DNA of 64,000 bases, taken from Rikenellaceae bacterium (GTDB lineage Bacteria > Bacteroidota > Bacteroidia > Bacteroidales > Rikenellaceae). Below are positions 1-64,000 of this stretch, in pieces (position 1 is the stretch's first letter; each line of letters opens with the position of its first letter). Both the position numbers and the translations under genes were made by a program. The notes under the pieces are model-generated. The model worked only from the letters and a program-made list of their open reading frames with translations, was not told where the DNA came from and searched no databases. Where the stretch lies: the NCBI GenBank assembly GCA_047171945.1, contig JBCQWR010000003.1, positions 10,170-74,169 on the forward strand, written 5' to 3'.

Positions 1-206
1 CGATGGTCAAAGCGATTGATATATTTATAGTCAAAAGCAACAACGACGAGCCAATTGAAGATTTTGTGCCAATGAATGACCAGAAACAGGCGGAGTTTAT
101 CCGCACCCAACAGTGCAAACTCTCGAAGAAACCACGTGCACGTCGCACAACGACAACCACAACAGCGGCTCCTACAACACGCAAACGCACTACTACAACT
201 AAGTAG
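1..206 (+). CDS. hemD: 3' end of a gene truncated by the window edge, probably uroporphyrinogen-III synthase, with a Thr-rich low-complexity tail
   Basis: Begins (S)MVKAIDIFIVKSN, resembling the C-terminus of Bacteroidota HemD; lies directly upstream of rnpA-yidD, the usual Bacteroidales order as I recall it. Confidence 0.45.
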   Translation, partial: MVKAIDIFIVKSNNDEPIEDFVPMNDQKQAEFIRTQQCKLSKKPRARRTTTTTTAAPTTRKRTTTTK

Positions 207-230
207 TAGAGACTATGGAGCAATAAAAAA

Positions 231-629
231 ATGGAGAGAGAGTACTCACTACCGCACCACCAGCGCTTGCGCTCCCGTGGTTCTATTCGCCGACTTTTCG
301 ACTCTGGCAAGAGTGGGTTCGTCTATCCATTGCGCTATATCTGGTTTGCCGAAGATAGCCCCGAGGGTGAAGCAAATCAAGCCGAGGTTCTCTTCACGGT
401 CCCAAAGAGGTTTCACAAACGGGCAAACCGACGCAACCTACTTCGCCGATATATCAAAGAGTCCTACCGACTCCAGAAATCAATAATCCTCGATCGAGAG
501 CTCCTCACCGAAGATAGGGCAAAAAGTATAGATATAGCGATCATCTACTCCACAAAGGAGCAGAAGAGTTATAAAAACATAAACAATGCAGTGCGCAAGA
601 TTCTCGAAAATATTGCAAAAGATCTATAG
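231..629 (+). CDS. rnpA: Ribonuclease P protein component
   Basis: [13 protein letters not shown]-terminus and the [26 protein letters not shown] motif. Confidence 0.93.
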
Positions 630-855
630 AGCAATTAGGTGGCTCCTTCTACAGCCACTTATTTTGCTTGTGCTCTTCTACCGACGCTGTATCTCACCAT
701 TTACACCACCCTCATGTCGCTTTACACCCACATGCTCGGAGTATGCCCTTCAAGCTCTAAGAAAGTATGGAGCTCTTAAAGGAAGTTGGCTCACTATCAA
801 GCGACTCTCGAGGTGTCATCCATGGGGTGGAAGTGGCTATGATCCACTCAAATAG
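586..855 (+). CDS. yidD: Membrane protein insertion efficiency factor (true start may be slightly downstream)
   Basis: [20 protein letters not shown]...[24 protein letters not shown] signature. Confidence 0.93.
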
Positions 856-866
856 TAGCTCAACAT

Positions 867-1814
867 CTACTCAATCGCTCGCCCCTGATAATCGAATGTA
901 AACCACCGTCCATCTCGCTTGGCACGGCTCAAACCTGTATTCGAGTCAAACTCCACAATCTCATATCGTGGCTCAATGATATAGGCTCCTGCGCTATCTA
1001 TAAGCCCCATACCATCCGATGTCTCCACCTCGGCACGTCCCTCTCGCATATTCGAGGCCCACAGATATCGAGGCGAGATGATCTCATCGCCCTCGGGAGT
1101 GATGTAGCCATACCCTGTGCTGCTCTCGGCAACACACATTCCTTCGAATGGATTACCCACAGAGCTATAACCATAGAGCGCATTGAGAGGTTCCGCCGCC
1201 TCGGTATAGCACCCATCGTCACAAGCAAGGTGCGAGGGTTCGCACCCAACAACAGCACATATCTCAGAGCGAAGCGTCTCAAACTCTGCATGACAATCCT
1301 CATCGAGTGCCACCGAGTGAAGTCGAACGGGATAGAGTAGAGAGTCGTCACCGACAATTATATTCTCACATTTGAGGTTTCCATGACGCATCACAAGGCG
1401 ACCAAACTCACACTCCAACTGCGCTATAGAGGATGCAAGCGACTCTATAGCTATTGTCGAGGCAACCTCACTCAACGCTCTACCACGAGGAATCTCCTCG
1501 AGAACCAAGTCGCACTGTTGAACCCTGCCGCATGAATCCACATAGGTCATCTCGGAGAGGAGGATACGACGCTCCAACAATATCTTAGAGCGTCGAGAGC
1601 GCAACTTCACTGCGGCATGCTTCGCCATCGAGAGCGCCGCATTATTGAGAGGCATTGAGAGCAGATATACCCTACCATGCCACTCTATCTCGACCTCGGC
1701 AAAGTGTGTCGTGCGACTCACCTCCACCTCAGCTATTACTGCATCTCGCAGAGTAGATAGACTTTCGCTCGCAGCCGAGAGTGCCGATATAAAATTATTT
1801 ATTGTTGCTGACAT
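867..1814 (-). CDS. Degenerate protein-kinase-like domain fused to C-terminal WG repeats (probable pseudokinase)
   Basis: HGNLKCENIIV catalytic-loop-like motif with Asp->Asn; C-terminal YGYITPEG, MGLIDSAG, WFTFDYQG WG-type repeats. Confidence 0.7.
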   Translation of the reverse strand: MSATINNFISALSAASESLSTLRDAVIAEVEVSRTTHFAEVEIEWHGRVYLLSMPLNNAALSMAKHAAVKLRSRRSKILLERRILLSEMTYVDSCGRVQQCDLVLEEIPRGRALSEVASTIAIESLASSIAQLECEFGRLVMRHGNLKCENIIVGDDSLLYPVRLHSVALDEDCHAEFETLRSEICAVVGCEPSHLACDDGCYTEAAEPLNALYGYSSVGNPFEGMCVAESSTGYGYITPEGDEIISPRYLWASNMREGRAEVETSDGMGLIDSAGAYIIEPRYEIVEFDSNTGLSRAKRDGRWFTFDYQGRAIE

Positions 1815-1816
1815 TA

Positions 1817-2683
1817 TTAACCTCTCTTCACGCTAATGGAACCAATATTAAGAATTGTGATCAACTCCGAGATGGAGCAGTTGTAGCTCATAGCTTTGAG
1901 TGCTACCCCCTGCTCTGAGCCTTTGATCTGCGACACAGCATCCATAAAGATCGGAGGCAACTCACTCGAGGAGTGAAAGAGCGACAGCGCCGCCAAAGAG
2001 CTCTCGCCACCCACAGCCATCTCGGCAAGCGAGGGGAATAGCATCGAGCGTGCCGCCGAGTCCGAGGCGATATGAACATTGATAAGTAGCGCTGCCCCAT
2101 CGTGGGTCGAGATAGCTTTGATACGTGATGCGATCTCGGCAATGTCGGAGTAATCACAGTCGGTCGATTCGCCATCGGTGACATTGAATATCATCGGTGG
2201 AAAGCTCTCCCTATTCTCACTCTTAGCGCACCACATCTCGGCAATCTCATGACTCGAAAGCAGCGCCTCATACATCGGTGTTGAGCCCACAGCCTTGGGT
2301 CGAATCCAACATCGACATCGATGGCTAAGAAACCTATGTTCTCCATTGGGCAGGATATACTCTCGCTCAAGGGTAACCTCATCGACACTTAACGAAGCTA
2401 TATCGACAATCGAACGCCAAGGAGTATCGCCAGCTCCAAGAAGCGGCGTGACACCCTCACCCGAGTATCCAACAATAGCGATATCGTAGTAGTCTCGCAC
2501 GCCGTCGCTACGACGTGAACGCTCCACAAGCTCCGAAATAAGGTCGTTGACAACCTCCGAAAGCATATCAGCTTTGGTAAACGTACGTCCCATCGACTTC
2601 ACCTCTCCTGCCATTGAGCATGATTGATCAATAGCGATGATTATCAGCGCTCTATTATTGCGTGTGATACTCCGACTATACAT
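1817..2683 (-). CDS. vWA-domain protein (TerY-like)
   Basis: MIDAS motif IAIDQSCSM, GSTPM Thr motif, NVTDGE acidic motif. Confidence 0.85.
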   Translation of the reverse strand: MYSRSITRNNRALIIIAIDQSCSMAGEVKSMGRTFTKADMLSEVVNDLISELVERSRRSDGVRDYYDIAIVGYSGEGVTPLLGAGDTPWRSIVDIASLSVDEVTLEREYILPNGEHRFLSHRCRCWIRPKAVGSTPMYEALLSSHEIAEMWCAKSENRESFPPMIFNVTDGESTDCDYSDIAEIASRIKAISTHDGAALLINVHIASDSAARSMLFPSLAEMAVGGESSLAALSLFHSSSELPPIFMDAVSQIKGSEQGVALKAMSYNCSISELITILNIGSISVKRG

Positions 2684-2685
2684 AT

Positions 2686-4413
2686 CTACAGACCTCTTAC
2701 AGCATTAAAATCTCTCATCCTAACCTCCTCCATATCGCTATCTATACCATAACTTATCGACATCTCTGCCGAAGAGTCTCGCTGTCGATCTCGCTCGGCC
2801 AACGCTCGAAGCTCTTGGTGCGACTTTGTGGCTGAGGCGACGATTGAGGTCACCTCCTCGGCACTTGGGGTGTGACCCAAAATTTCGGTCAAGAGACTAA
2901 ATGCCCAATCGAAGGCATAGGAAGTGTAGGAGGCACTAAACGCCCTAAACTTAGCATCGATAGCCTCGAATGAATCAATCTCGGAGCTCTCCACCCCATC
3001 GAGAATCTCCTCGACATAACTCTTGGTGAGGTATTGACCAGCCACATCAATCCAGCGGCAACGACCCTGGCCACAACGAGAATTATCGCCCGACGAGAGC
3101 ATATAACCCAATGAGGCAGCGATAGCTTTGTTATATAGGGAGAGGCCTCGGTGGAGGTTGTGTGAACTAATTATAATTTTATTGTGAATATAGCTTTGCG
3201 CATCGGGGCTCTTCTCGATGAGAATGTTGGTGCGATTCACCGCATCAAGCAACATTCTCGAGATGTAGGGGTTATACTCCTCAAAGTTAATCATATCTCG
3301 CTTCACTCTGCGCTTATCCCGCTTCACCCACTTCTCAACGTCTCGCTGATAGCCATAACTCGAGAGGTTGGCCGCAGGAATAAGCGTCGAACGCCCCTCT
3401 TTGTTTATAAGGTATGAGAAGGGAAACTCCGAAGTGTCGTGGTGCGAGCTATGGCTACCAATGACCGAGGTGTAGGCACCATTGATGGCAGGCAGCATGA
3501 CATAGGCCGAGCTGCCAAACTTGCAACCACGGAGGTGGATGGCTTGATGGACTGGGCCACACTTAAAAAGGTGGTTGCTCTGATTGGAGCCGCTACCAGC
3601 ATTGAAGAACGAAAACATACCTGCAATGAGCAGCGATGATTTATGGTGTGATACAGTGTAGGGGCCAGCAAAAACCGATGCCGCCTCACCATTTTCACAA
3701 TGCGACGAGGCGAAGAAGAGCGAGTCAACCGCCGTAAAACCATTTGAGATAATTACATTCTCACCAACAAAACAGCGCTCGATGGTGGCACCATTATCAA
3801 CCCTCGCCCCTTCGACAGCGATAAAGTCGTGCGCCTTAACATCAGCACCAAAGTATCCTCCTTCGAGGATCGTACCATTACTCAGAGCTGAGCACCCCTC
3901 CACTATAACCGAGTCCCCCACCCTAAGGTTGCGAATTATGCCCGCACCAAGAATCTTAGCACCACGCCCCACCGAGCCCATCGACGATGAGCGCTGAGCA
4001 CTATAGGCGTCAACCATCGCATCGAGACGCTCGATGAGTTTTGGACGATGGCGATAGAGTGTATAGATATATCCCACCTGTGCTGTGAGCGACTCATATA
4101 TCTTAATTGTTCTACCTCCGCACTCATTGAGCGAGGCAACCTCAACACCATTACCAAAGCTACTTTGCGAACAACACTCCAAACGAGTAACACTCTCTAT
4201 ACGAGATAGTTCACCAAGCGAATAATTAGCAACAGTGGAGTTATGCACTTGTGCACCAGCAGCAATAAAGACGTTGCCTTCAAATCGAGAAAGTGACAAC
4301 TGCGAGACATTAAAACACTCACTGACAAGCACCTTGCTCCAATCCTCAGCAAAACATGATCGAGCAGTTAGCTCCGATATCTCCTCTACTCTAAGTTCTC
4401 TTAATGTATCCAT
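2686..4413 (-). CDS. DUF4954-family protein with hexapeptide/beta-helix-like repeats
   Basis: 575 aa; FAGPYTVSHHKSSLLIAGMFSFFNAGSGSNQSNHLFKCGP..QAIHLRGCKFGS block recalled as typical of DUF4954. Confidence 0.75.
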   Translation of the reverse strand: MDTLRELRVEEISELTARSCFAEDWSKVLVSECFNVSQLSLSRFEGNVFIAAGAQVHNSTVANYSLGELSRIESVTRLECCSQSSFGNGVEVASLNECGGRTIKIYESLTAQVGYIYTLYRHRPKLIERLDAMVDAYSAQRSSSMGSVGRGAKILGAGIIRNLRVGDSVIVEGCSALSNGTILEGGYFGADVKAHDFIAVEGARVDNGATIERCFVGENVIISNGFTAVDSLFFASSHCENGEAASVFAGPYTVSHHKSSLLIAGMFSFFNAGSGSNQSNHLFKCGPVHQAIHLRGCKFGSSAYVMLPAINGAYTSVIGSHSSHHDTSEFPFSYLINKEGRSTLIPAANLSSYGYQRDVEKWVKRDKRRVKRDMINFEEYNPYISRMLLDAVNRTNILIEKSPDAQSYIHNKIIISSHNLHRGLSLYNKAIAASLGYMLSSGDNSRCGQGRCRWIDVAGQYLTKSYVEEILDGVESSEIDSFEAIDAKFRAFSASYTSYAFDWAFSLLTEILGHTPSAEEVTSIVASATKSHQELRALAERDRQRDSSAEMSISYGIDSDMEEVRMRDFNAVRGL

Positions 4414-4640
4414 AATTATATCTCTTCGATTTTTGCTATGTTAATCAACAAATATACATAATAATACCTTCATACACAAGCGCCTAAAAATGGAGGCATA
4501 AATAAAGAGCGCAACTTGCACTATCTTTATAGCGAGATTAGCACCTATGATGCACATCTCAATGATTTAGTAATCTTAATTTTAGCCCTCACTCCCGACA
4601 TCCGCCCTCTATTATTTGTGAGGTTGTGGTTTTGTTAAAA

Positions 4641-4677
4641 AAAAGGTTGAATAATCCTTAAGACTATTCAACCTTTT
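4641..4677 (-). terminator. Intrinsic terminator downstream of tRNA-Gly
   Basis: 13-bp stem aaaaggttgaata/tattcaacctttt followed by a T run on the minus strand. Confidence 0.8.
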
Positions 4678-4678
4678 G

Positions 4679-4751
4679 AGCAGAAAACGAGACTCGAACT
4701 CGCGACCCCAACCTTGGCAAGGTTGTGCTCTACCAACTGAGCTATTTCTGC
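4679..4751 (-). tRNA. tRNA-Gly(GCC)
   Basis: GCAGAAA/TTTCTGC acceptor stem, TAGCTCAGTTGGTAGAGC D arm, CAACC-TTGCCAA-GGTTG anticodon arm, GTTCGAGTC T loop; CCA not encoded. Confidence 0.97.
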
Positions 4752-4807
4752 AATATGTTTAGAACTTTCAAAACTTTGAGAGTTGTTATCCCGTTGTTTT
4801 GTGAGTG

Positions 4808-4838
4808 CAAATATAGAGGAAAAATCTATACCTGCAAA
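4808..4838 (-). promoter_or_regulatory. Bacteroidota primary-sigma promoter for tRNA-Gly
   Basis: TTTG-N19-TATATTTG, an exact match to the -33/-7 consensus. Confidence 0.85.
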
Positions 4839-4933
4839 ACTTTTGGGCATTTTTTTTAGACTTTTTTTAAACTTTTCTGGCAAAATGCTGATTTTCAATC
4901 GAGTTCAATTTTCTCTTTTTTGGTGCCTCAACG

Positions 4934-5830
4934 CTATAAATTGAGATATTTCTCGACAGTCTCCCGCAAACGCTCACCATTGAGGTGGGTGTAGATCTCG
5001 GTTGTCACAATATTTTCGTGCCCCAACATCTCCTGCACCTGCCTAATCGAGGCGCCCCCCTCGAGCAGATGAGTGGCGAATGAGTGGCGCAGGGTGTGTG
5101 GGCTCACCTTTTTTTGTACGCCAGCCAGAGCTGCGGCCTGCTTGAGCAGGGTGAAGATCATCACTCGAGTGAGCGGCTTGCCACGGTTGTTGAGGAAGAG
5201 CGCCTCTTGGTTGCCCCCTCGATCCTCTCGTTGCTCTAAATATAGGTGTATGCGCTCTCGTGCCAGTGGGCTTATGGGAATCAGACGCTGCTTGTCGCCC
5301 TTGCCAATCACACGTATATAGCCCTCGCCAAAGAAGAGGTCGCTCATACGTAGCTCGGTGGCCTCGCTCACACGTAGACCGCACGAGTAGAGCAGCTCAA
5401 TGATGGCTCTATCACGCAGCCCCTTGGTGGTGGAGGGGTCGATGGCCGAAATTATGCGGTCTATCTCCTCGAGCGAGAGCACATCGGGTAGTTTGCGAGA
5501 GAGGCGAGGCGACTCTACGAACTCCACGGGTGAGGTCTCAATCTGATCGAGGAGTTGGAGGTAGCCAAAGAATGAGCGCAGGGTGCTCAGCACTCGTGCT
5601 TGGGTGCTCTTCTTGCAGCCTCTGTCGTAGAGCCACGCCATATATTGCTCGATGGTCTGCTCCTCCACTTTGCGGGGCGGAATATCCTTCATGCGGAGTA
5701 TGTAGTGGGCAAATGCCGCCAAGTCTCGCATGTAGGAGTCGACGCTATTGTCGGAGAGTCGACGCTCCAACTTTATATAGGTTCGATATTTGCGTGCAAT
5801 ATCTTCCCATCTCTTCCTATTTTCTGCCAT
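4934..5830 (-). CDS. xerD: Chromosomal tyrosine recombinase XerD
   Basis: 298 aa; RDRAIIELLYSCGLRVSE, GKGDKQRLIP, SPHTLRHSFATHLLEGGA, LGHENIVTTEIYTH. Confidence 0.9.
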   Translation of the reverse strand: MAENRKRWEDIARKYRTYIKLERRLSDNSVDSYMRDLAAFAHYILRMKDIPPRKVEEQTIEQYMAWLYDRGCKKSTQARVLSTLRSFFGYLQLLDQIETSPVEFVESPRLSRKLPDVLSLEEIDRIISAIDPSTTKGLRDRAIIELLYSCGLRVSEATELRMSDLFFGEGYIRVIGKGDKQRLIPISPLARERIHLYLEQREDRGGNQEALFLNNRGKPLTRVMIFTLLKQAAALAGVQKKVSPHTLRHSFATHLLEGGASIRQVQEMLGHENIVTTEIYTHLNGERLRETVEKYLNL

Positions 5831-5838
5831 TCTTTTAC

Positions 5839-5877
5839 TACCTTTGCGTTGTGTGTGATAATAGTGTCACAAAGATA
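5839..5877. promoter_or_regulatory. Divergent -7 boxes for prmA (+, TACCTTTG 5839-5846) and xerD (-, TATCTTTG 5870-5877)
   Basis: Two TAnnTTTG motifs in the short divergent intergenic region; no clear -33 box for the + strand motif. Confidence 0.6.
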
Positions 5878-5894
5878 GTAAATTTAACATAATA

Positions 5895-6722
5895 ATGGAC
5901 TACGTAGAGTTAAATATTCCGCTTTCGGGCGATGAGATGGGTGAGATCCTAACAGCAGAGTTGGCCGACTACCCCTTCGAGAGCTTCACCGAGGAGCGTG
6001 GACAACTCAAAGCATATATCCCCCAAGATCGTCTGGCCGATTGCAAGGAGCAGGTCGACGAGCTCTTGGAGAGTTATTCGGTGGTGGGGGCTCGCTACAT
6101 CTCGATCGAGACCCAAAATTGGAATGCGCAGTGGGAGAGCAACTTTGAGGTGGTTGAGGTGGATCGTGAGATCCTCATTCGAGCGCCATTCCACTCACCC
6201 AATCCCGACTTCCGCACCGAGGTTGTCATCATGCCCAAGATGTCGTTCGGCACGGGTCACCACGCCACAACCTACCTTATGTCGCAGAAGATCAGCCAGA
6301 TAGATGTGAAGGGTAAGCGAGGTCTCGACATGGGAAGTGGCACAGGAGTGTTGGCCATCATAGCTGTGAAGTATGGTGCCGAGGCCGTTGACGCCATCGA
6401 CATCGACGAGTGGGCCGACGAGAATTGCCGAGAGAATATCGTGCAGAATGGCGTCGAGAGCTCTATCACCCCACTCTTGGGCGACGCCTCGCTTATCGAG
6501 GGGCGCCGCTACGACTTTGTCTTGGCCAACATCAACCGCAACATTCTGCTTGCCGACATGCACCGCTACGTAGCGACCCTCACCGAGGGTGGCACGCTGC
6601 TTATGAGTGGCTTCTTTGTCGACGACATCGAGACATTACGCCAAAAGGGCGAGTCGCTTGGTCTGAGCTATTGTGGCTTCAGTGAGCGAGATGGTTGGGC
6701 TGTGATGCACCTCACACTTTAG
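5895..6722 (+). CDS. prmA: Ribosomal protein L11 methyltransferase
   Basis: PKMSFGTGHHATT, LDMGSGTGVLAI, VLANINRNIL. Confidence 0.95.
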   Translation: MDYVELNIPLSGDEMGEILTAELADYPFESFTEERGQLKAYIPQDRLADCKEQVDELLESYSVVGARYISIETQNWNAQWESNFEVVEVDREILIRAPFHSPNPDFRTEVVIMPKMSFGTGHHATTYLMSQKISQIDVKGKRGLDMGSGTGVLAIIAVKYGAEAVDAIDIDEWADENCRENIVQNGVESSITPLLGDASLIEGRRYDFVLANINRNILLADMHRYVATLTEGGTLLMSGFFVDDIETLRQKGESLGLSYCGFSERDGWAVMHLTL

Positions 6723-6725
6723 AGG

Positions 6726-7454
6726 ATGCCAAAGAGTTACAAGGGGCGTGGGGTGGTCCTCAGCACGGTGAAGTATGGCGATAGCTCGATGGTGGCGCAG
6801 CTGCTCACCGATGTGGGCGGCCGCCAAAGCTTCATGGTACAGGGGGTGCGTAGCACTCGAGGGAGAGGCTCCAAGTTGGCACTCTTTCAACCGCTCTTTG
6901 CGCTCGAATTCGAGGGGGCGGAGCCAACTCGAGGTGAACTCCACCGCTTCCGTGAGGTGCATAGCGGCATCACGCTCCACAAGACACCATTCGACGTGCG
7001 CCGCTCCACCATTGCGCTATTTATTGCCGAGGTGCTCTACCGCCTCATTAAGGAGAGCGAAGCCAACGAGCGCCTCTTCGAATTTGTCTGGGGTTCGGTT
7101 GAGGCGCTCGATAATATTGAGGAGGGGGTGGCCAATTTTCATCTCTGGTTCCTCTCCAATTTGACACGTGTGATGGGGTTTTCGCCCACCAACAACTACT
7201 CCAAGGGGTGTTGGTTCGACATCAAGGAGGGGTGTTACACCTCCGAGAAGCCTCTCCACAACCTACTCCTCGATCCCGATATGGCGATGATCCTGCGAGA
7301 TATGATCGAGTGTGATGTGCGCCACTTAGGTGAGGTGGGTCTCAATCGGCACCAGCGAGTATCGTTCCTCGAGGCGCTAATGAGCTACTATGGCTACCAC
7401 CTTGAGTCGATACACTCGGTGCAGTCGATCTCGATCCTTATGGAGTTATTCTAA
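6726..7454 (+). CDS. recO: DNA repair protein RecO
   Basis: GVVLSTVKYGDSS N-terminal OB fold, LFQPL, Bacteroidota-type C-terminus (YYGYHL..SISIL.ELF). Confidence 0.9.
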   Translation: MPKSYKGRGVVLSTVKYGDSSMVAQLLTDVGGRQSFMVQGVRSTRGRGSKLALFQPLFALEFEGAEPTRGELHRFREVHSGITLHKTPFDVRRSTIALFIAEVLYRLIKESEANERLFEFVWGSVEALDNIEEGVANFHLWFLSNLTRVMGFSPTNNYSKGCWFDIKEGCYTSEKPLHNLLLDPDMAMILRDMIECDVRHLGEVGLNRHQRVSFLEALMSYYGYHLESIHSVQSISILMELF

Positions 7455-8044
7455 TACTTCTGGTAGTGAACCTTCTCAGGTTTCCACTTATCCTTTGGCT
7501 CCGACTCCGAGTCAGGGTAGCCAATGATGATAGCGTTGAGGGCATTGATGCCCTCGGGGAGGTTGAGCAGTGCCTTCATCTTAGATGTGCGGCCACTCTC
7601 ATTTTCGGGATAGGCACCACACCACACTGCGCCAAGACCCATTGCGTGGGCTGCCAAGAGTATATTTTGGGTTGCAGCGCTGCAATCCAAGGTCCACGAT
7701 CCCGAGATTGACTCATCGCCAAGAACCACAATTGCCAATGGGGCTCCTCCCGCCATGCGCATGCCACCAGCGATACTTGGTAGCTCGTTGAGGATCGCAC
7801 GATCGGTGATCACAACAAACTCCCAAGGTTGCTTGTTGCTGCCCGTTGGAGCAGCCATACCTGCTTTGAGAAGCTTGTCGATCTTATATTGCTCCACCGC
7901 CTGTGGAGTGTACGACCTGACACTCGCTCGAGTCATAATGTTGTTGAGTACAGCATCCTCCGCAGAGGGAGCCTCACCACAGCAAGAGGAGGTGACGCTT
8001 GCAGTGCAGATCGCTGCACAGAGTAGAAGTAGGATCTTTTTCAT
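7451..8044 (-). CDS. Nitroreductase-family protein with a predicted lipoprotein signal peptide
   Basis: IMTRASVRSY, AAPTGSNKQPWEF, ATQNILLAAHAMGLGAVW; N-terminal MKK-hydrophobic-SSC. Confidence 0.88.
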   Translation of the reverse strand: MKKILLLLCAAICTASVTSSCCGEAPSAEDAVLNNIMTRASVRSYTPQAVEQYKIDKLLKAGMAAPTGSNKQPWEFVVITDRAILNELPSIAGGMRMAGGAPLAIVVLGDESISGSWTLDCSAATQNILLAAHAMGLGAVWCGAYPENESGRTSKMKALLNLPEGINALNAIIIGYPDSESEPKDKWKPEKVHYQKY

Positions 8045-8324
8045 AATTGTATCGAAGTTAAATATAGTTTATATATTATGGCAAAGATAGTAAAATTTGC
8101 AATAAGATGACAGATACAAAGCTCTATTTTTGCCCCTCTCTTCGTTCACAAAGGTCCATTTCAATAGGTATAACTACCCAATTTTCACCATCTATCAGTA
8201 ATTTGTGGCTGTTAAAAGTATCTCGTTTATTATTTTTTTGTTACATTTGTCTACTCGTCGAAGTTGATAATCCCATCTCTTTGGCGAAATGTTAAGACTT
8301 TAAACACAACAAATTGATACTTTT

Positions 8325-9458
8325 ATGAAAAAAATTATTCTCTCTTGTTTAGCTCTCGTAGCTTTCGCAACTACATCATCTGCTCAGAGTGATCCATTCT
8401 TGTGGAGACTTGGCGACAACACCACTGTTAAATTGGGTGGTTACCTACGCTTTAATGTTAATGCCGACCTCGATGGAAGTGTGGGTGGTGCAAACGACTT
8501 CCAGCCATACAAGATCACCGAATCGTCGTGGACCAATGAAGATTATGTCAACTATGACCCAACAGCAACCCGTTTCTCGCTCGAGATAATCCAAAATTCT
8601 GAGAGTGTAGGCAAAGTAAAAGCCTTTGTTGAGGCTGACTTCCGTAACACCTCGAATGCCGCCCGCCTACGTCAAGCCTACGTTGAATTGTGTGGCATCA
8701 CTGCAGGTTACGCATGGAGCTTTATGAGTGATTTGGCATCTAATGCCCCAACAGTCGACATCACTGGTGTTAACTCACGTACCTTCTTGCGTACAATGAT
8801 GGTGGGTTATCGCTACTCATTTAGTGAGAAACTATCGGCTGGTATCGCAATCGAGATCCCTTCGCTCGCCACATCCTATATTGATGAGTACACTGCAGTA
8901 AACCAAACGATGCCTAACATCCCAGCATATGTGCAACTCAAGGGCTCGATGGGTCACATCAAGGCGGCGGTGGCTCTACGCACTCTTCAATATGGTGAAT
9001 CGGCATCGCAGGAGCGTGAGAGCAACCTCGGATGGGGTGGCCAACTATCGGGATCGCTCAATGTTGCATCGGGTGTGAAGCTATTTAGCCAAGCTATCTA
9101 TGGCCAGGGTATCAACAACTACATCAACGACCTCTCGGGTCAATCGATCAATATGATGTCGGAGGATGGCAAAACGATGGTTGCAACACCCATGGGTGGT
9201 GCCTCACTTGGTGTAAGTGCTAAACTCTCTAAAAAGTGGTCGGTAGCGGCAAGTGGCTCAATGGTTGAGAACTTCGGTGACGAGGATTATTTCGATGGCA
9301 ACTATAAGAGTAGCAGCTACATATCGACAACTATCTTCTACACCCCCGCACCACGTGTGACAGTTGGTGCTGAGTACCTCAATGGTAGCCGCACAAACTT
9401 CGGTGGCGATGCTACAGGAGCTCAACGACTTAGCCTATCTATAAAGTACGCACTCTAA
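8325..9458 (+). CDS. DcaP-like outer-membrane porin
   Basis: Signal peptide; VKLGGYLR, TRFSL, KAFVEADF, RLRQAY, GYAWSFMSD motifs; ends KYAL. Confidence 0.75.
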   Translation: MKKIILSCLALVAFATTSSAQSDPFLWRLGDNTTVKLGGYLRFNVNADLDGSVGGANDFQPYKITESSWTNEDYVNYDPTATRFSLEIIQNSESVGKVKAFVEADFRNTSNAARLRQAYVELCGITAGYAWSFMSDLASNAPTVDITGVNSRTFLRTMMVGYRYSFSEKLSAGIAIEIPSLATSYIDEYTAVNQTMPNIPAYVQLKGSMGHIKAAVALRTLQYGESASQERESNLGWGGQLSGSLNVASGVKLFSQAIYGQGINNYINDLSGQSINMMSEDGKTMVATPMGGASLGVSAKLSKKWSVAASGSMVENFGDEDYFDGNYKSSSYISTTIFYTPAPRVTVGAEYLNGSRTNFGGDATGAQRLSLSIKYAL

Positions 9459-18823: not shown

Positions 18824-18870
18824 TTTTAGGCTGTGTAGTACAAAATATATCGTTATCTACACGCCACCTA

Positions 18871-19010
18871 CGTCACCCCAGACTTGATCTGGGGTCTACA
18901 AAAGAGAGTGATCTTCAGTGAATTAATAGTATATGTTGTAGATTCCCGATCGAGTCGGGAATGACGTAAAGGTTAGTCGGGAATGAGGTAAGTGTTAGTC
19001 GGGAATGACG
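18871..19010. repeat. REP cluster: two full palindromes in inverted orientation plus two tandem half-units
   Basis: cgtcaccccagacttgatctggggtctac (18871-18899), gtagattcccgatcgagtcgggaatgacg (18938-18966), gttagtcgggaatga x2 (18972-19010). Confidence 0.85.
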
Positions 19011-57220: not shown

Positions 57221-58438
57221 TTATAACTTGCTCTCCTCCTCACATTTGGCGCTAATGCTGAGCATCAACATAAATGCCATGTAGGTGCAAAATAGAGCCG
57301 ATCCTCCACGTGAGACAAGTGGCAATATCTGCCCCGTCTCGGGAAGGAAGTTTACCGACACCATAACATGGAGCAGTGCCTGTAGAAGTATCAGCGAGGC
57401 TAAACTCAAGACAAGCAGCTCTCGGAATGGGTCGTTGCAACGCTCAAATATCCACATCGCTCTAAAAAATATCCAGATGTAGAGTAGCAGCAGCAGTATC
57501 GAGAGTATCAAACCATACTCCTCGACAAAGAATGCAAAGGCGTAGTCACTCTCGGGGTGTATCATCTCCACTCGCATCGAACTTTGACCAGCGCCAACAC
57601 CACCAAACCCGCCATTTTGAATAGCCACCATCGAGCGTTCTGTATCGGAGATGTCATCAACTCGAATCTCCATTCTATTTGAGGTCCATGTATCCACCCA
57701 TGTATCCAAACGGCCGCCAGCCGTACCACTGCGTCCCAATCCCAAAAACGAGAAGAGGGCAGCAAAGAGAGCTGCATAGCCCACCACCTTCAATATCTCT
57801 TTGAATCTGACCCCCGCAAGGTAGAGAATCACCAAGGAGACACCAAAGAGAACCATTGCCGAGGAGGTGTGAGCCATCAAAATAACCAGAGTTGAAGCAA
57901 ATATCGGGATCGTAATGGGGATCATGCCCTCGTTGAGTATTCTCTTATTGAGAGCTTTGCTGCCTTTCTTGAGCGCTGGCACAAGCCTTAGGTTCTTGAT
58001 CTGCTTGGGGTTGCGAGTAAGCATCACCGAGAGGTGCAACACAATGGCCACTTTGAGCGCCTCGGATGGTTGGATGTTGATTGGCCCCAGTGGAATCCAT
58101 CGTGCAGCGCCATTGATGGCACTACCCCTGAAGTAGGCATAGAGGGTGAGAAGTATGCATATTATCAAGATATGCCACGAGTAGGTGCTATAAAGTTTGA
58201 CACTAAAGCGGTGCATGACAGCCATCACAGCCAGTGAAAAGATAAGAAAGGCGAGCTGCAAGAAGAGATACTTGAAGGGTGAGGCCGACTCGGTAACATC
58301 GTAGGCCATCTTAGCTGTAGATGAGAATACGAGCAACACTGAGACGATCGAAAGAATCGCTACAATAACCCACAGCACTCTATCTCCAAAGATCAAACGA
58401 GGCAAGCGTGAACCTCCTTCACTATTAGCTATTGCCAT
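57221..58438 (-). CDS. ftsW: SEDS-family peptidoglycan polymerase FtsW
   Basis: NGAARWI, QPSE, GAGQS, ESDYAF..FVEEYG, TGQILPLVSRGGS; directly downstream of murD. Confidence 0.88.
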   Translation of the reverse strand: MAIANSEGGSRLPRLIFGDRVLWVIVAILSIVSVLLVFSSTAKMAYDVTESASPFKYLFLQLAFLIFSLAVMAVMHRFSVKLYSTYSWHILIICILLTLYAYFRGSAINGAARWIPLGPINIQPSEALKVAIVLHLSVMLTRNPKQIKNLRLVPALKKGSKALNKRILNEGMIPITIPIFASTLVILMAHTSSAMVLFGVSLVILYLAGVRFKEILKVVGYAALFAALFSFLGLGRSGTAGGRLDTWVDTWTSNRMEIRVDDISDTERSMVAIQNGGFGGVGAGQSSMRVEMIHPESDYAFAFFVEEYGLILSILLLLLYIWIFFRAMWIFERCNDPFRELLVLSLASLILLQALLHVMVSVNFLPETGQILPLVSRGGSALFCTYMAFMLMLSISAKCEEESKL

Positions 58439-59765
58439 CGCTCATCCTCCCATCTTTAAGTTTATTGACCCACGCCGAGAAGCACTCACCACGGTGGATG
58501 TAGCTTTTGAAGAGATCGAATGAGGCACACGCAGGTGACAAAAGAACAACATCTCCACCATGAACCGCACCATGGGCTGCTGTCATAGCCTCCTCAAACG
58601 AAGAGCATGAGACGATCGAGGGGACAACCCCCGCAAACTCTCGCTCCAAGGCAGCATTATCGAGCCCCATGCAGACCAAAGTGTGCACCTTGGCTGCGGC
58701 AAACTCCTTGAGCGGAGTGTAGTCGTTACCCTTGTCGGTGCCACCTGCGATCCAGACCACAGGGCGAGTCATCGCCTCGAGAGCATACCACACCGAGTCG
58801 ACGTTGGTGGCCTTCGAGTCGTTGATGTAGAGCACCCCACCGATCTCGGCAAGCGGCTGTAGGCGGTGCTCCACCGCTCCAAATGAGCAGATTGCACGCT
58901 CCACCACCTCTGGAGCTACTCCAGCGGCCAAGGTAGCCAAAGCTGCCGCCTCGGCGTTATAAATATTATGCTGACCCGTAATCTGCATCTTCGAAGCCTC
59001 GAAGCTTACCCTCGCCTCGCCCACTTGCGCCTCCACCATTTGACTCTTCGTGTTGCCAAAGCTCAAGCAGTGCTGAGGTAGCGGCAACCCCTCCATCTGC
59101 GAGGTGATCGCCTTGTCGGCACCAAAGTATATGAAGTAATCTTCGGCGCCTTGATTCTGCACAATGCGCATCTTGGAGGCTGCATAGTTCTCGAAGCGGT
59201 AGTCGTAGCGGTCGAGGTGGTCGGGTGTAATGTTGAGCAACACCCCGATGTCGGCCCTAAAGTCATACATGCCATCGAGTTGGAACGAGCTAAGTTCCAA
59301 GACATACCAATCGTAGGCGGCAGTGGCCACCGAGTAGGCGAAGCTCTCGCCAATATTACCACCAACGGCCACCGAGTAACCAGCCTCACGCAGGATGTGG
59401 TAGATGAGCGAGGTGGTGGTGGTCTTGCCATTGGAGCCCGTAATGCAGATCATCTTGGAGCGATCGGCATAGCGCCCAGCAAACTCGATCTCGGAGATCA
59501 CGGGGATCCCCGCCTCTATGATCTTCTGCACCAAAGGCACTTTGTCGGGAATACCAGGCGACTTAATCACAATGTCGGCCGAGAGGATAAGCTCCTCACT
59601 ATGAGCCTCCTGCTCGTAGGAAACCCCCCACTGCTCGAGCCTCTCAACAACATCACCCGAAAGGGCACCACGATCCGAAAGGAGAACCTCAAACCCCTCC
59701 TTCTTGGCCAATATCGCAGAGCCATAACCACTTACGCCTCCACCTAATACTACTACTCGTTTCAT
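58425..59765 (-). CDS. murD: UDP-MurNAc-L-Ala:D-Glu ligase
   Basis: KSPGIP, TGSNGKTTT, ELSSFQL, NITPDHLDRY, DSKATN, SPACASFD. Confidence 0.96.
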   Translation of the reverse strand: MKRVVVLGGGVSGYGSAILAKKEGFEVLLSDRGALSGDVVERLEQWGVSYEQEAHSEELILSADIVIKSPGIPDKVPLVQKIIEAGIPVISEIEFAGRYADRSKMICITGSNGKTTTTSLIYHILREAGYSVAVGGNIGESFAYSVATAAYDWYVLELSSFQLDGMYDFRADIGVLLNITPDHLDRYDYRFENYAASKMRIVQNQGAEDYFIYFGADKAITSQMEGLPLPQHCLSFGNTKSQMVEAQVGEARVSFEASKMQITGQHNIYNAEAAALATLAAGVAPEVVERAICSFGAVEHRLQPLAEIGGVLYINDSKATNVDSVWYALEAMTRPVVWIAGGTDKGNDYTPLKEFAAAKVHTLVCMGLDNAALEREFAGVVPSIVSCSSFEEAMTAAHGAVHGGDVVLLSPACASFDLFKSYIHRGECFSAWVNKLKDGRMSDGNS

Positions 59766-59823
59766 ATATCTTTAATTATCATCTTAAACAACTCTCTTTG
59801 CTACAAAAAATTAATATTTTAGA

Positions 59824-61782
59824 TTACTTAAATCTAAGCTGCATATTTAATTTAAAGTAGAGACCCTCCTTCTCCATATAGATTCTTCCAAATCTATGAC
59901 GTGTAGAAGATGGTGTATCAAATTTAATATTCTCAAATAGATACTCTTTGAACTCTTTTTGATCTATTATATGGAAAGCAACACTCTCCCCACTCTCTTT
60001 GACAACAACAGTTCCATTGGCAGCATACTCTCCATTCCACCTTTTACCAGGAAAAAAGCCTAATAGTATATCCAACAACAACCGTTTTATCTTCATCTCG
60101 ACTAACAATAATTCATCATTATTAACATCCTTACAGATATACTCCACAATCTGTTTTACGGCAGATATTCTCTCCTTATAATAGCACATTAACATCTTAC
60201 CTACAAGATCTGGCATATCTCCATCAACTGTTCGCAAATTGAGATTTAGATTCTTATTTTCTGCTCCGATATATTCAAAACGGCCACCATTTTCCTCAAT
60301 GGCGCACATTCTATCTACTATCTTAGTTCGGGTCTTAATATTATTTATTTCGTCTACTTTGGTCTCATCTAATCCATTAATTTTAAATATAAAATTAGTA
60401 GAGCCTGATGCATTAAATAGTGTAGGATTGCTACCAAGATATGATTTTATACCGTAACCCTCATCTATCGCCTCATATTTGTCAGTTTTAACATCAAATA
60501 GTATATCGGCTTTTTGACTACTTGAACCTCCCTTCACAATAGATAAACCTAAAGCATCTTGAATCACCTCAAAATCTTCTATCTCAAAAGTGCCTCTACC
60601 CTCTTTAATTTTATCTCTGAGCGTCTCTAATACTTCTGGTGTTATTAAATCAGTCATATCAACTTTATTTACCTCAATATTGGACTCCTTATCTTTAATA
60701 ATTACCTCAGAAGAGTCATTAACGAAGTACGATTTTGTGTTGTTGAGTGTCGTAACCTTAGCTATTTTAATTGTGTCATCTTTTGCAGACAGATCTTTAT
60801 TTGCAAGATGTATCTCTCTATTAAGCAATGTCTGCACAAAAACATACAGTTCGCTCCATTCACCTTTATTCTTTGTCTCTTTCATAACATCTACCTTATT
60901 TGTATCTATCTGCATTATATGATTAATTAAGCTTCGTCCAACAGCTTCAACAGCATCAATAGCCACACTATTACCGAGCTGCTTCATTGCATGCACAATA
61001 CTTGATGGAAGCCAAAAATCATCAGGAAATCCCTGCATCTTCTTACCTTCAATCGGAGATAATCGCCTAACCTCGCCATCCACCAAATAACTATCCCAGT
61101 TCCGACGATCATCAATGTTACTACCACGACCACCTACCCTTAATGTAAATCCAATATCACGAGAACATTTACCACCCCAAACATCACTCATAGTATATTT
61201 AAGTTTCGTTGGAGCTGGAAAATCAAACGATTTAAGAAATCCCTCATCTCTAAAGCCGACAATAAATACACGAGGTCTACGCTGAGGTAGTCCATAATCT
61301 GATGCATTTACAATTTTAAGATATACCGAGTAACCTAATTCATTTTCAAGAATGTTACGTATAACTTTTATTGTATTACCATTATCGTGGGCAACTAAAC
61401 CTCTAACATTCTCAAGAAAAAATGCTTTTGGTCTTTTAATATCAATTATCTCCGCAATATTAAAAAAAAGATTTCCTCTCTCTGACCTGTGATTATCCTC
61501 AAATCCTCTTTTTTGACCTGCTTGGCTGAAAGGTTGACAAGGAAACCCTGCACACAAAACATCAAAATCAGGTATCTCTTCTGGTGATATATTTCGTATA
61601 TCATCATTAAACAGACCAGAATCAAACAACACAGGGCTAATACTTCTAAAATTAGTCTCATATGTTACCCTTGCACTACTATCTACCTCCGATGCAAAAA
61701 CGCACTCACCACCAAGCCTATGCATAGCAATATGGAAACCGCCAATACCAGCAAAAAGATCTATAAATTTAAATTTTGACAT
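59824..61782 (-). CDS. Fused C5-cytosine DNA methyltransferase (aa ~1-299) and HpaII-family restriction endonuclease (aa ~300-652)
   Basis: MTase motifs FAGIGG, PCQ, ENV, QRRPR, LGNS; then NKGEWSELY, KADI..GIKSYLG...FDTPSSTRH; visibly more AT-rich than its neighbours. Confidence 0.88.
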   Translation of the reverse strand: MSKFKFIDLFAGIGGFHIAMHRLGGECVFASEVDSSARVTYETNFRSISPVLFDSGLFNDDIRNISPEEIPDFDVLCAGFPCQPFSQAGQKRGFEDNHRSERGNLFFNIAEIIDIKRPKAFFLENVRGLVAHDNGNTIKVIRNILENELGYSVYLKIVNASDYGLPQRRPRVFIVGFRDEGFLKSFDFPAPTKLKYTMSDVWGGKCSRDIGFTLRVGGRGSNIDDRRNWDSYLVDGEVRRLSPIEGKKMQGFPDDFWLPSSIVHAMKQLGNSVAIDAVEAVGRSLINHIMQIDTNKVDVMKETKNKGEWSELYVFVQTLLNREIHLANKDLSAKDDTIKIAKVTTLNNTKSYFVNDSSEVIIKDKESNIEVNKVDMTDLITPEVLETLRDKIKEGRGTFEIEDFEVIQDALGLSIVKGGSSSQKADILFDVKTDKYEAIDEGYGIKSYLGSNPTLFNASGSTNFIFKINGLDETKVDEINNIKTRTKIVDRMCAIEENGGRFEYIGAENKNLNLNLRTVDGDMPDLVGKMLMCYYKERISAVKQIVEYICKDVNNDELLLVEMKIKRLLLDILLGFFPGKRWNGEYAANGTVVVKESGESVAFHIIDQKEFKEYLFENIKFDTPSSTRHRFGRIYMEKEGLYFKLNMQLRFK

Positions 61783-61814
61783 ATAAGTTCTAATTAATTC
61801 ACCATTTTTACTAT

Positions 61815-63359
61815 CTACATTATCCTACCCCACTGCTCCCTGTCGAGGCTCCTGTAGGAGATTGCCTCCGAGATGTGGGCTGCCGTGATACTCTCTTCGC
61901 CTGCCAAGTCGGCTATCGTGCGGGCCACTTTGATTATGCGGTCGTAGGCTCTTGCCGAGAGGTGCAGTCGCTCCATTGCCATCTCTAACATGCGGCGTGC
62001 AGCAGAGTCAAGGGGGCAAAACTCTCTTATCATTTTGCTGTTGATCATTGAGTTGGTATAAACTCCTTCGATATCTCGATAACGCTTAGCTTGCACCTCA
62101 CGAGCCTTTATGACTCTCTCTCGCACCTCAGCACTCGACTCCTCGACCCTCTCACGGCTAATTTCGCTGATCGACACGGGGGTCACCTCAATGTGGAGAT
62201 CTATGCGATCCAATAGAGGCCCCGATATGCGGTTGAGATAGCGGTGAACAGCACCTGGTGAGCAGCTACACTCACGGTCAGGGTGGTTGTAGTAGCCACA
62301 TGGGCAGGGGTTCATCGAGGCCACCAAGGTGAAGTTGGCGGGGTACTCGACACTATATCGAGCCCTCGAGATTGTTATGCGCTTCTCCTCGAGTGGCTGT
62401 CGCAGCACCTCCAAGACGTTGCGCCCAAATTCGGGCAGCTCGTCGAGAAAGAGCACCCCGTTGTGTGAGAGCGACACCTCGCCTGGCTGAGGTGATTGCC
62501 CACCTCCGATGAGTGCCACTTGCGAGGTGAGGTGGTGCGGCGAGCGGAATGGTCGTGAGTGCATCAACCCTTTAGTGATGCCGAGCTTACCCGCCACCGA
62601 GTGTATCTTGGTGGTCTCCAAAGCCTCCTCAGTGCTTAGTGGTGGCATAATCGAAGGGAGCCTACGTGCCAACATTGTCTTACCCGAGCCTGGCGAGCCG
62701 ATCATCACAGCGTTGTGACCTCCTGCGGCCAATATCTCCATCGCACGCTTAACCTGCGCTTGACCCTTGACATCGGCAAAATCCTCGGCAAAGAGCGATT
62801 CACTCACCTCCTCGGCTACCATCTCTACTTGAGCTACTTCGAGGGGTTGATAACCGTTGAGCATATCAACAATATGGCGCAGGGAGTCGACCCCAACCAC
62901 ATCGATACCATCGACAACAGCCGCCTCAGCGAGATTCTCACGAGGCAAGAATATCCGTTTACGCCCTCTATTGCGAGCCTCAACGGCCAATGGCAGGGCT
63001 CCTTTGATCCCTTTGACCGATCCATCGAGCGAGAGCTCGCCCAAAATCATCGACCCCTCCAACATCTCATCGCTGATCTGTGAGGTGGCCGCCAAGATAG
63101 CAACAGCTATCGGCAGGTCAAAGGCCGAACCCTCCTTTCGAAGATCGGCTGGCGCCAAGTTGACCACCAATTTCTTGGAGGTAAACCGCAGTGAGGAGTT
63201 CTCGAACGAAGATCGAATACGCTCCTGCGACTCCTTGACGGCATTATCGGGTAATCCCACCAAGAATAGACCCAATCCACCCTCGGCCAAATTCACCTCG
63301 ACGGTAACCTCGACAGCATCGATACCTACAATCGCACCAGCATAACTCTTTACAAACAT
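61815..63359 (-). CDS. comM: YifB/ComM Mg-chelatase-like AAA+ ATPase
   Basis: VGLPDNAVKES, NLAPADLRKEG, GSPGSGKTMLARR, LFLDELPEF, NPCPCG, LSARAYDR. Confidence 0.92.
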   Translation of the reverse strand: MFVKSYAGAIVGIDAVEVTVEVNLAEGGLGLFLVGLPDNAVKESQERIRSSFENSSLRFTSKKLVVNLAPADLRKEGSAFDLPIAVAILAATSQISDEMLEGSMILGELSLDGSVKGIKGALPLAVEARNRGRKRIFLPRENLAEAAVVDGIDVVGVDSLRHIVDMLNGYQPLEVAQVEMVAEEVSESLFAEDFADVKGQAQVKRAMEILAAGGHNAVMIGSPGSGKTMLARRLPSIMPPLSTEEALETTKIHSVAGKLGITKGLMHSRPFRSPHHLTSQVALIGGGQSPQPGEVSLSHNGVLFLDELPEFGRNVLEVLRQPLEEKRITISRARYSVEYPANFTLVASMNPCPCGYYNHPDRECSCSPGAVHRYLNRISGPLLDRIDLHIEVTPVSISEISRERVEESSAEVRERVIKAREVQAKRYRDIEGVYTNSMINSKMIREFCPLDSAARRMLEMAMERLHLSARAYDRIIKVARTIADLAGEESITAAHISEAISYRSLDREQWGRIM

Positions 63360-63383
63360 CGCATCCTCCCTCTTTCGTTTAAT

Positions 63384-64000
63384 TTAGAATGGCGCCTCGT
63401 CATTACCCTTGACAGGGGAGATATCAAACTCGTTGCTTTGAAGTGGCACAGCTGGTGCTGGCGCCTCGAAGCTATTTGAGCTACTGGCGAAATCCTCATA
63501 TTGGGTTGCACCACCAAAACTTGCGCTTGGCGGAATATCTAATTGGTTGATGTCGACAAATTTGGCCTGCTCCTTAATGAAGCGCAACGGCACGTCGCAC
63601 ACCTCTCCATTACGATGCTTTGCCAAGATGATCTCGGCCATACCTGCGGTGGGCACTCCATCCTCGGTTTGGTGAATTCCATAATATTCGGGACGGTGGA
63701 TAAATGCCACAATATCGGCATCCTGCTCAATTGCACCCGACTCACGGAGGTCACTTAGCTGAGGTCGCTTCGAGCCACCACGCATCTCGGCAGCACGACT
63801 TAGCTGCGAGAGGGCGATGATCGGTACGTTGAGCTCCTTGGCGATAGCCTTGAGTGTACGTGAGATGAACGAAACCTCCTGCTCACGGTTGCCTTTGTTG
63901 TCGCCACCACCCGTCATAAGTTGGAGGTAGTCGATAATTATTATCTTAATGTCGTGGTGAATCTTCAAACGTCGAGCCTTCGAGCGAAACTCAAAGACCG
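63384..64000 (-). CDS. dnaB: Replicative DNA helicase, C-terminal part (5' end beyond the window)
   Basis: [50 protein letters not shown]. Confidence 0.96.

Follow-up and report, generated by a model that had tools for sequence, protein, structure and literature searches.

Near-complete loss of CCGG, CGCG and CTAG from a Rikenellaceae chromosomal segment that carries an HpaII-family restriction-modification fusion

A 64,000-nucleotide stretch of a Rikenellaceae chromosome (assembly GCA_047171945.1; hereafter "the window") contains no CCGG, no CTAG and a single CGCG, and encodes an HpaII-family restriction-modification (R-M) gene in which a methyltransferase and an endonuclease are fused. The purge of the three words is probably the outcome of long-term selection against 4-bp Type II restriction sites, exerted by recurrent or long-resident R-M systems. 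An earlier note on this DNA, made by reading the sequence by eye, had reported the absence of CCGG and proposed restriction-site avoidance, which under-representation, the presence of a CCGG-type R-M gene and lineage-specificity together leave as the best explanation. The note had overlooked CTAG and CGCG, however, and because these are purged as completely as CCGG, one R-M gene alone cannot account for all three words.

Word counts and codon contexts

A pattern search of both strands found CCGG zero times in the window, against expectations from the 4-mer table of 231 (base composition, GC 49.0%), 189 (order-1 Markov) and 94 (maximal-order Markov); dinucleotide-preserving shuffles (n = 100) gave 185.6 ± 12.1, with a minimum of about 150. 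CTAG is also absent (expected 249, 239 and 167 under the same three models), and CGCG occurs once (231, 231 and 185). The next-lowest 4-mers, GGAC (53) and GTCC (57), reach about half of their maximal-order expectation, and no other word comes near the three. All 12 of the 6-bp palindromes that hold CCGG, CTAG or CGCG are absent, as must be, and no further purged word was found among 5-bp interrupted palindromes of the window. The same pattern extends over 80.9 kb of contig JBCQWO010000001.1 (the window with 9.1 kb to its left and 7.8 kb to its right), in which CCGG occurs 0 times (order-1/maximal-order expectation 234/118), CGCG once (285/222) and CTAG 0 times (299/213). The 4-mer count that the earlier note had called for, run across the window, thus bears out its claim about CCGG. 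Of the words that it described as common, GGCC (187), GCGC (221), TCGA (661) and TCGG+CCGA (633) are so, but CCWGG, at 39 against 111 by the order-1 model, is not.

Codon bias was rejected as the cause. For 49 genes without overlap, which make up 90% of the window, 200 rounds of synonymous-codon shuffling that preserved amino-acid sequences and codon usage still predicted 221 ± 11 CGCG, 100 ± 8 CTAG and 87 ± 7 CCGG (z = -11.8 for CCGG), whereas none of the three is present in the coding DNA. Every codon-pair context is empty: for CCGG, nCC/GGn (0 versus 91.9), CCG/Gnn (0 versus 14.7) and nnC/CGG (0 versus 8.1); for CGCG, CGC/Gnn (0 versus 113), nCG/CGn (0 versus 43) and nnC/GCG (0 versus 71); and for CTAG, CTA/Gnn (0 versus 73) and nCT/AGn (0 versus 36). 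The codons themselves are used freely before codons that start with A (CGC/Ann 144, CTA/Ann 61, CCG/Ann 16). In the 6.7 kb of non-coding DNA, observed and expected counts are 0/7.4 for CCGG, 1/8.3 for CGCG and 0/21 for CTAG. The one surviving CGCG lies in the tRNA-Gly(GCC) gene, where there is no silent alternative. A conspecific metagenome-assembled genome (MAG), L003, carries CGCG at a third codon position of the ribonucleotide reductase (RNR) gene where the window does not, which shows that single sites arise and are tolerated.

The R-M fusion gene and its insertion site

The R-M fusion that the earlier note had described was located between comM and murD (Table 1). Residues 4-300 match DNA_methylase (PF00145, 2.4e-77) and TIGR00675 dcm (1.1e-79), with M.HhaI as the best match in the PDB (3.6e-62), and residues 305-651 match RE_HpaII (PF09561, 1.5e-94) over profile positions 1-359 of 359; a sequence search of the PDB found no solved structure for the HpaII endonuclease domain. 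Across 24 homologues of 59-80% identity, the methyltransferase motifs I (DLFAGIGG/FAGIGG), IV (GFPCQPFS), VI (ENV), VIII (QxRxR) and X (GNSV) are invariant, as are long stretches of the endonuclease half. Fusions of this kind are frequent in Bacteroidota databases: both domains are present in at least the best-scoring 120 homologues listed (full-length members 648-672 amino acids), whose carriers include Flavobacterium branchiophilum, Riemerella anatipestifer, Bernardetia, Aureispira, Runella and many MAGs. An 8.8-kb plasmid of Francisella philomiragia bears a further fused copy, of 54% identity. As one continuous open reading frame (ORF), the gene departs from the orthodox Type IIP layout of separate R and M genes. 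Its specificity is, by strong inference from family membership, CCGG, a word of which the host DNA covered here holds no copy at which methylation might be read. Between species, copies differ at proportions of 0.72-0.86 for synonymous (pS) and 0.11-0.21 for nonsynonymous (pN) sites; synonymous sites being saturated, the ratio of nonsynonymous to synonymous substitution (dN/dS) can be given only an upper bound of about 0.1, and both domains appear to be under strong purifying selection with dN/dS below this value.

Table 1. Coordinates of features in the window and in related loci
Feature	Sequence	Coordinates	Strand	Remark
Chromosomal segment	window	1..64000	.	CCGG 0, CTAG 0, CGCG 1; housekeeping genes
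tRNA-Gly(GCC) gene	window	4678..4751	-	only tRNA gene of the window; holds the sole CGCG, at 4701
XerC/XerD-type tyrosine recombinase gene	window	4934..5830	-	adjoins the tRNA-Gly gene
XerC/XerD-type tyrosine recombinase gene	L187	19044..19958		just past the left end of the window
Intergenic element	window	18870..19021		77% identical to the L179 element
Spacer element, about 150 bp	L179	2907..3056		within the 222-bp comM-murD spacer
Third-position C/T polymorphism, RNR gene	window	55152..55155	-	window CGT (CACG on the + strand); L003 CGC, giving CGCG
ftsW	window	57221..58438	-	after murD
murD	window	58425..59765	-	downstream neighbour of the inserted R-M gene
R-M fusion gene	window	59824..61782	-	652 amino acids, single polypeptide; N-terminal C5 methyltransferase, C-terminal HpaII-family endonuclease
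comM/yifB-like Mg-chelatase-family ATPase gene	window	61815..63359	-	upstream neighbour of the inserted R-M gene
R-M fusion, 79% identical	L183 (GCA_028748545.1, JAMHJD010001420.1)	6590..8600		spacers of 3 bp and 11 bp to mraY/murG
Defence island with R-M fusion	L184 (CAYJBL010000085.1)	1600..7550		helix-turn-helix gene, R-M fusion, ThsB-like TIR, TPR-S, second TIR protein, Schlafen/AlbA_2-HATPase gene

Three relatives found by way of MurD (L179, L180 and L181) have comM directly adjoining murD, and the empty junction identifies the gene of the window as an insertion. Direct repeats on either side of the window's gene do not exceed an 8-bp match, which is at chance level. Other Rikenellaceae MAGs carry R-M copies of 72-80% identity at other loci (Table 2). 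The copy in L183 is flanked on both sides by a perfect 21-bp direct repeat (AATGCGATAGAGTATGAAAAA) that includes the start codon and looks like a target duplication produced by insertion; this copy holds one CCGG, and the surrounding 9 kb none. In this clade murD and ftsW lie outside the dcw cluster, in the order dnaB-comM-murD-ftsW-RNR (window 57221-63359; also L179, L180, L181 and L183), and in L183 the R-M gene stands between mraY and murG, the usual place of murD-ftsW. Taken with the window, this puts R-M copies at both junctions of the old murD-ftsW relocation, which could be a coincidence or could reflect a link to the rearrangement. The comM-murD spacer of L179 contains the element listed in Table 1, followed by tandem repeats of about 25 bp (AGTCGGGAATGACGCAAA...); its match between genes of the window suggests that these genomes harbour a small repeat element at dispersed sites.

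The earlier note had called the R-M gene compositionally foreign. This holds for GC content (35.1% versus 48.4% in the flanks, with a like offset in every host examined) and is consistent with the insertion, but recent arrival does not follow. The copies are about as diverged as housekeeping genes of the same species, and they have already lost the words that their hosts avoid: CTAG occurs 0 times in the window copy (5.8 expected, P = 0.003) and 0 times in the L183 copy (4.7 expected), whereas the copy in L094, whose host tolerates CTAG (20/64) but has CATG 0 times against 98-108 expected, has 7 CTAG (5.6 expected) and no CATG (8.9 expected, P = 1.4e-4). The match between each copy and its host argues that avoidance was imposed after arrival while GC content stayed low, and a copy free of CTAG, with sister copies saturated at synonymous sites, may be foreign without being recent.

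Purged words in related genomes

Counts for relatives (Table 2) are given as observed over order-1 expectation per locus, low-GC loci having little power for GC-rich words; 81 kb of the window's own genome and 5-22 kb per relative were covered. The set of missing 4-bp palindromes differs from one related lineage to the next, and all of them are classical Type II sites. Of the 1,323 palindrome-locus pairs for which at least 30 sites are expected, 23 fall below 5% of expectation; CTAG makes up 12 of these, and 10 of the remaining 11 belong to this Rikenellaceae group. CTAG itself is mildly low (0.4-0.5x) in the sister lineages L181, L091 and L094. CCGG depletion is lineage-specific: L011, L013 and L015 have the word at normal frequency, as do most Bacteroidota loci (median observed/expected 1.16).

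Table 2. Surroundings and word counts (observed/expected) of related loci and of carriers of the fusion
Locus	Surroundings	CCGG	CGCG	CTAG	Other words
L179	R-M absent at comM-murD; MurD 93% amino-acid identity; flanking genes 85-90% (about 87%) nucleotide identity; spacer 222 bp	1/22	0/28	2/19	the window's set
L180	R-M absent at comM-murD; MurD 80% amino-acid identity; spacer 34 bp	12/38	44/51	1/56	GGCC 0/51
L181	R-M absent at comM-murD; MurD 73% amino-acid identity; spacer 13 bp	0/78	101/135	31/60
L183	R-M copy between mraY and murG	0/37	0/55	0/30	GGCC 3/39
L091	R-M copy between prfA and surE	0/40	1/52	26/61
L094	R-M copy between HAD and histidine kinase genes	8/49	0/83		CATG 0/108, GGCC 4/54
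L184	R-M copy in TIR/Thoeris-like defence island
L012		5/44		3/98	GATC 0/78, ACGT 5/62
L014		5/87		1/111	ACGT 1/91
L011, L013, L015	GC-rich	normal		missing	CTAG alone missing
F. branchiophilum	carrier, depleted	2/26
R. anatipestifer	carrier, depleted	2/25
Bernardetia	carrier, depleted	1/9
L118	close carrier (60% identity), not depleted	8/10
L100	close carrier, not depleted	4/6
L109	close carrier, not depleted	6/5

Carriers of the fusion are a mixture. Of the close homologues (at least 58% identity, CCGG expectation at least 5), 7 of 10 lie in CCGG-depleted DNA, and full-length homologues of 36-44% identity lie in CCGG-rich DNA. This mixture matches the survey of Rusinov et al. (2015; PMC4687349), in which avoidance is seen in about half of orthodox site-genome pairs, is greater for long-resident systems and leaves traces of lost systems in relatives. 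The comparison of relatives with and without the R-M locus, proposed in the earlier note, accordingly has two sides: L179 is depleted though its junction is empty, and carriage alone does not predict depletion. The note's further suggestion, that depletion may predate the window's R-M copy and reflect repeated occupancy by CCGG-specific systems, fits both with the CCGG count of L179, the closest relative, and with the diverged R-M copies found elsewhere in sister species; long occupancy would fit these as well.

Purging of several words at once is not exclusive to the Rikenellaceae clade. In 20 kb around the fusion of Riemerella anatipestifer L185 (GCA_034096575.1), ACGT (0/36), TCGA (2/46), GCGC (2/24) and CCGG (2/25) are nearly missing; GGCC stands at 4/37, CATG at 4/47 and GATC at 8/48.

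The relatives also bear on one alternative, that the resident fusion itself was the cause, having entered a CCGG-containing genome at the comM-murD junction with the purge following afterwards. The gene is intact and conserved and has been resident long enough to lose CTAG, and a contig from a metatranscriptome run spans comM, the R-M gene and murD, although DNA carry-over is possible and makes this weak evidence. Contigs of this RNA run cover the locus uniformly, which says nothing about transcription, given flat assembler depth and the same possibility of carry-over. However, L179, which has the empty junction, is already depleted of all three words, L181 combines an empty junction with no CCGG among 78 expected, and CGCG and CTAG would be left unexplained. 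A purge driven by this one insertion is therefore unlikely.

Replacement of lost sites

To see how sites were lost, orthologous genes were aligned by codon and each position at which a relative carries the word was inspected. None of 71 CGCG positions of L180 and L181 is kept in the window, compared with 158 of 408 positions of GCGC, TCGA, AGCT and GATC (Fisher p = 3e-14), and none of 118 CCGG positions of L180, L011, L013 and L015, compared with 35 of 297 positions of GGCC and GCGC (p = 6e-6); control words overall are kept at 12-39% of orthologous positions. Window and relative encode the same amino acids at 57 of the 71 CGCG positions. CGCG has been replaced by CACG/CGTG (33), CGAG/CTCG (13) and others, and CCGG by CCAG/CTGG (22), CAGG/CCTG (21), CCCG/CGGG (11) and TCGG/CCGA (4). 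The changes fall mostly at the third codon position of the word's frame, so that the spectrum mainly mirrors the silent alternatives available.

These data allow a second alternative to be weighed, namely that long C5 methylation led to loss of the words mainly by deamination of 5-methylcytosine (C to T), selection playing little or no part. The fusion does include a C5 methyltransferase, Pfam scans of the window found no vsr-like gene, and the commonest CGCG replacement, CACG/CGTG, accounts for 33 of 50 single changes; transitions and transversions at CGCG stand at 34:16 versus about 75:77 in control words, and the polymorphism within the species is likewise CGC/CGT. The transition excess is compatible with some mutational help, though it is confounded by codon preference. 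The deamination products, however, are not in excess. The earlier note had suggested that conspicuous CCGA/TCGG might be the footprint of outer-C decay and had proposed comparing it with CCAG/CTGG. TCGG+CCGA stands at 1.30x expectation in the window but at 1.31x in L011, where CCGG is normal, and at 1.20-1.31x in L012, L014 and L015, which makes the excess a feature of the lineage's composition; CTGG/CCAG is depleted, at 0.47x; and TCGG/CCGA accounts for few of the orthologous replacements, so the footprint was discarded. Overall, CpG shows no depletion (0.97), the transversion products of CCGG together exceed its transition product, and CTAG, replaced by CGAG/CTCG, is purged too. By our own estimate, raising the C-to-T rate 10-40-fold at 2 of a site's 8 bases would reduce the equilibrium count no more than several-fold and would not bring it to zero. 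The replacement spectrum is confounded by the placement of third codon positions. Mutational decay as the main cause appears quite improbable.

That the purge has no link to restriction at all, and instead has structural, regulatory or repair reasons or is a sequencing or assembly artefact, is most improbable: CTAG is indeed nearly absent from most Bacteroidales loci of any lineage and, where no matching R-M system exists, 55% of prokaryotic genomes avoid it (PMC4687349), but CTAG too varies by lineage, CCGG and CGCG reach or exceed their normal frequency in the majority of Bacteroidota loci and in close relatives (CCGG in L011, L013 and L015; CGCG in L180 and L181), the purged set differs by lineage and always consists of 4-bp Type II palindromes, and independent assemblies (three NCBI MAGs and several Logan assemblies) agree.

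Probable selection against restriction sites

Selection by R-M systems would act site by site. Any site left unmethylated or briefly unprotected, as may happen following replication, in times of stress, or upon the gain, movement or loss of an R-M gene, would bring a small risk of self-cleavage. The words were removed by silent codon changes that left amino acids mostly unchanged. Avoidance of CCGG would be tied to HpaII-type systems present in the clade for long or repeatedly, with the window's fusion as its natural partner, and avoidance of CGCG and CTAG to other systems that lie outside the window or have already been lost, with a general Bacteroidales-wide avoidance contributing for CTAG. 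The window's R-M copy may have inserted at comM-murD after the purge, or moved there from elsewhere in the genome, and the 4-bp Type II systems of the clade would be long-lived, mobile within and between genomes, and lineage-specific. An observed count of zero implies a true mean below about 3, hence at least a 29-74-fold reduction, from which a scaled selection coefficient of about 3.4-4.3 per site may be estimated. In a large population, weak selection per site, with a coefficient of only about 3.5-4, would thus suffice to leave no sites in 64-81 kb, and sites need not be lethal.

Several points weigh against this explanation. Two of the three purges (CGCG and CTAG) have no visible R-M cause in the window: Pfam scans of its 49 genes found no CGCG- or CTAG-specific R-M system, no second R-M system, no other methyltransferase and no vsr gene. 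The CCGG specificity of the fusion is itself deduced from family membership. L179 and L181 have no R-M gene at this locus (the only one examined in them), yet are practically free of CCGG. Among 17 metagenome carriers of full-length homologues the median CCGG observed/expected is 1.15 (93/40 in L169), which rules out the proposition that every fusion carrier is CCGG-depleted. CTAG is strongly depleted in most Bacteroidales loci whatever their known R-M systems, as also found elsewhere (PMC4687349). Finally, if a single CGCG is tolerated in L003, selection on each site must be weak, its strength being an estimate.

A bolder extension, tentative and on balance doubtful, is that a chromosome free of the three words is shielded from three 4-bp enzymes by having no targets rather than by methylation, every one of the numerous co-resident species keeping a private set of forbidden words. 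If this were so, R-M genes could be gained, moved and lost freely in this Alistipes-like clade without self-killing, amounting to genome-level immunity to R-M "addiction", and the forbidden-word set would be an ongoing, fast-acting trait that re-shapes even incoming genes.

Relation to known systems

Avoidance of restriction-site palindromes in prokaryotic chromosomes was reportedly described by Gelfand and Koonin in 1997. The window resembles that phenomenon in that short Type II palindromes are rare where a matching R-M system is or recently was encoded, in that relatives share patterns whatever their current R-M content, and in the general avoidance of CTAG. In the survey of Rusinov et al., orthodox Type II sites are avoided in 48% of site-genome pairs at an under-representation threshold of observed/expected below 0.78, and avoidance grows with the lifespan of the system and persists in close relatives as a trace of lost systems (PMC4687349). 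The window differs from such published cases in its counts of 0, 0 and 1 against roughly 90-300 expected for each word, far under that threshold, in offering a visible candidate system for only one of its three words, and in an R-M gene that itself shows the host's avoidance.

As for the enzyme, the window's endonuclease matches the full HpaII profile and has a C5 methyltransferase partner, as in HpaII of Haemophilus parainfluenzae and in FpsJI, a two-gene HpaII-like system of Flavobacterium psychrophilum, also a member of the Bacteroidota; experiments showed that FpsJI acts as a CCGG barrier, blocking conjugation and giving protection from HpaII (PMC11837570). Unlike FpsJI, the window's M (N-terminal) and R (C-terminal) parts form one predicted polypeptide, and no biochemical characterisation of an HpaII-type M-R fusion was found in the literature searched.

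Complete loss of restriction sites is known from genomes of phages and promiscuous plasmids as anti-restriction by avoidance. The window shares with these the total or near-total removal of 4-6-bp sites by silent changes, but it is a housekeeping chromosome and not a mobile element entering new hosts. R-M genes are said, from work of the Kobayashi laboratory, to be mobile units that insert in operon-like clusters, sometimes with long target duplications. The R-M ORF of the window resembles these in standing alone among housekeeping genes of like orientation, with very short gaps on either side, and so does the L183 ORF with its flanking repeat; at the window copy no repeat beyond 8 bp was found.

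The phenomenon itself is thus known, and what stands out is the completeness of the purge, the tRNA exception, the mosaic of lineages and the host-specific re-shaping of the R-M gene. The window offers a very clean natural case of how far word-level selection can reach in a bacterial chromosome, with its sole exception where silent change is impossible, and it pulls apart two signals that tend to be conflated, the R-M gene being foreign in GC content and host-like in its forbidden words. For that reason, avoidance of words can serve as a clock of residence that is faster and more specific than GC amelioration. Lineage-specific forbidden words in metagenomes could help predict past or present restriction specificities and assign mobile elements and phages to hosts, and could guide the design of DNA for uncultured or intractable gut Bacteroidota.

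The window and further observations

The window is ordinary chromosomal DNA of a fish-gut, Alistipes-like member of the Rikenellaceae. Pfam scans of all 49 genes identified gcvP, recG, ppk, ppx, proS, pheS, pyrB, recO, prmA, ybeY, murD and ftsW, together with genes for a class II RNR, dnaB, an XerC/D-type recombinase, sulfatases and outer-membrane proteins. Its GcvP is 74-80% identical to that of the nearest Alistipes/Rikenellaceae MAGs and about 57% identical to that of other Bacteroidota. The same sequence is present in three NCBI MAGs and in several independent Logan assemblies of fish-gut metagenome runs, which excludes an artefact of a single assembler. The habitat fits with the numerous Alistipes species, of small genome and lower GC content, that have been reported from the hindgut of Kyphosus sydneyanus, a herbivorous fish, in a study that does not mention restriction or word usage (PMC11748540). 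An XerC/XerD-type tyrosine recombinase gene adjoins the tRNA-Gly gene that holds the sole CGCG, and a second such gene is found about 14 kb away, beyond the left end of the window (Table 1), with no other sign of an integrated element.

Several further words deviate from expectation. TCGA (661 versus 312 by the order-1 model), CTCG/CGAG (1149 versus 555) and CTCGAG (75 versus 21) are in strong excess; that of TCGA is common to relatives (1.4-2.0x in L011, L013, L014 and L181) and partly outlasts the codon shuffle (616 versus 487). The non-palindromic GGAC/GTCC occurs 106 times in coding DNA, both orientations counted, versus 270 ± 12 by synonymous-codon shuffle. All eight 5-mer extensions of GGAC are low, the lowest being AGGAC (13 versus 117) and CGGAC (15 versus 103), and the deficit is milder in relatives (L179 9/45, L181 42/138); a Type IIS- or III-like system with a non-palindromic target may recognise the word. 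GAAGAC is absent from the window (order-1 expectation 18.7, maximal-order 9.0) and its reverse complement GTCTTC occurs six times, a strand-asymmetric gap.

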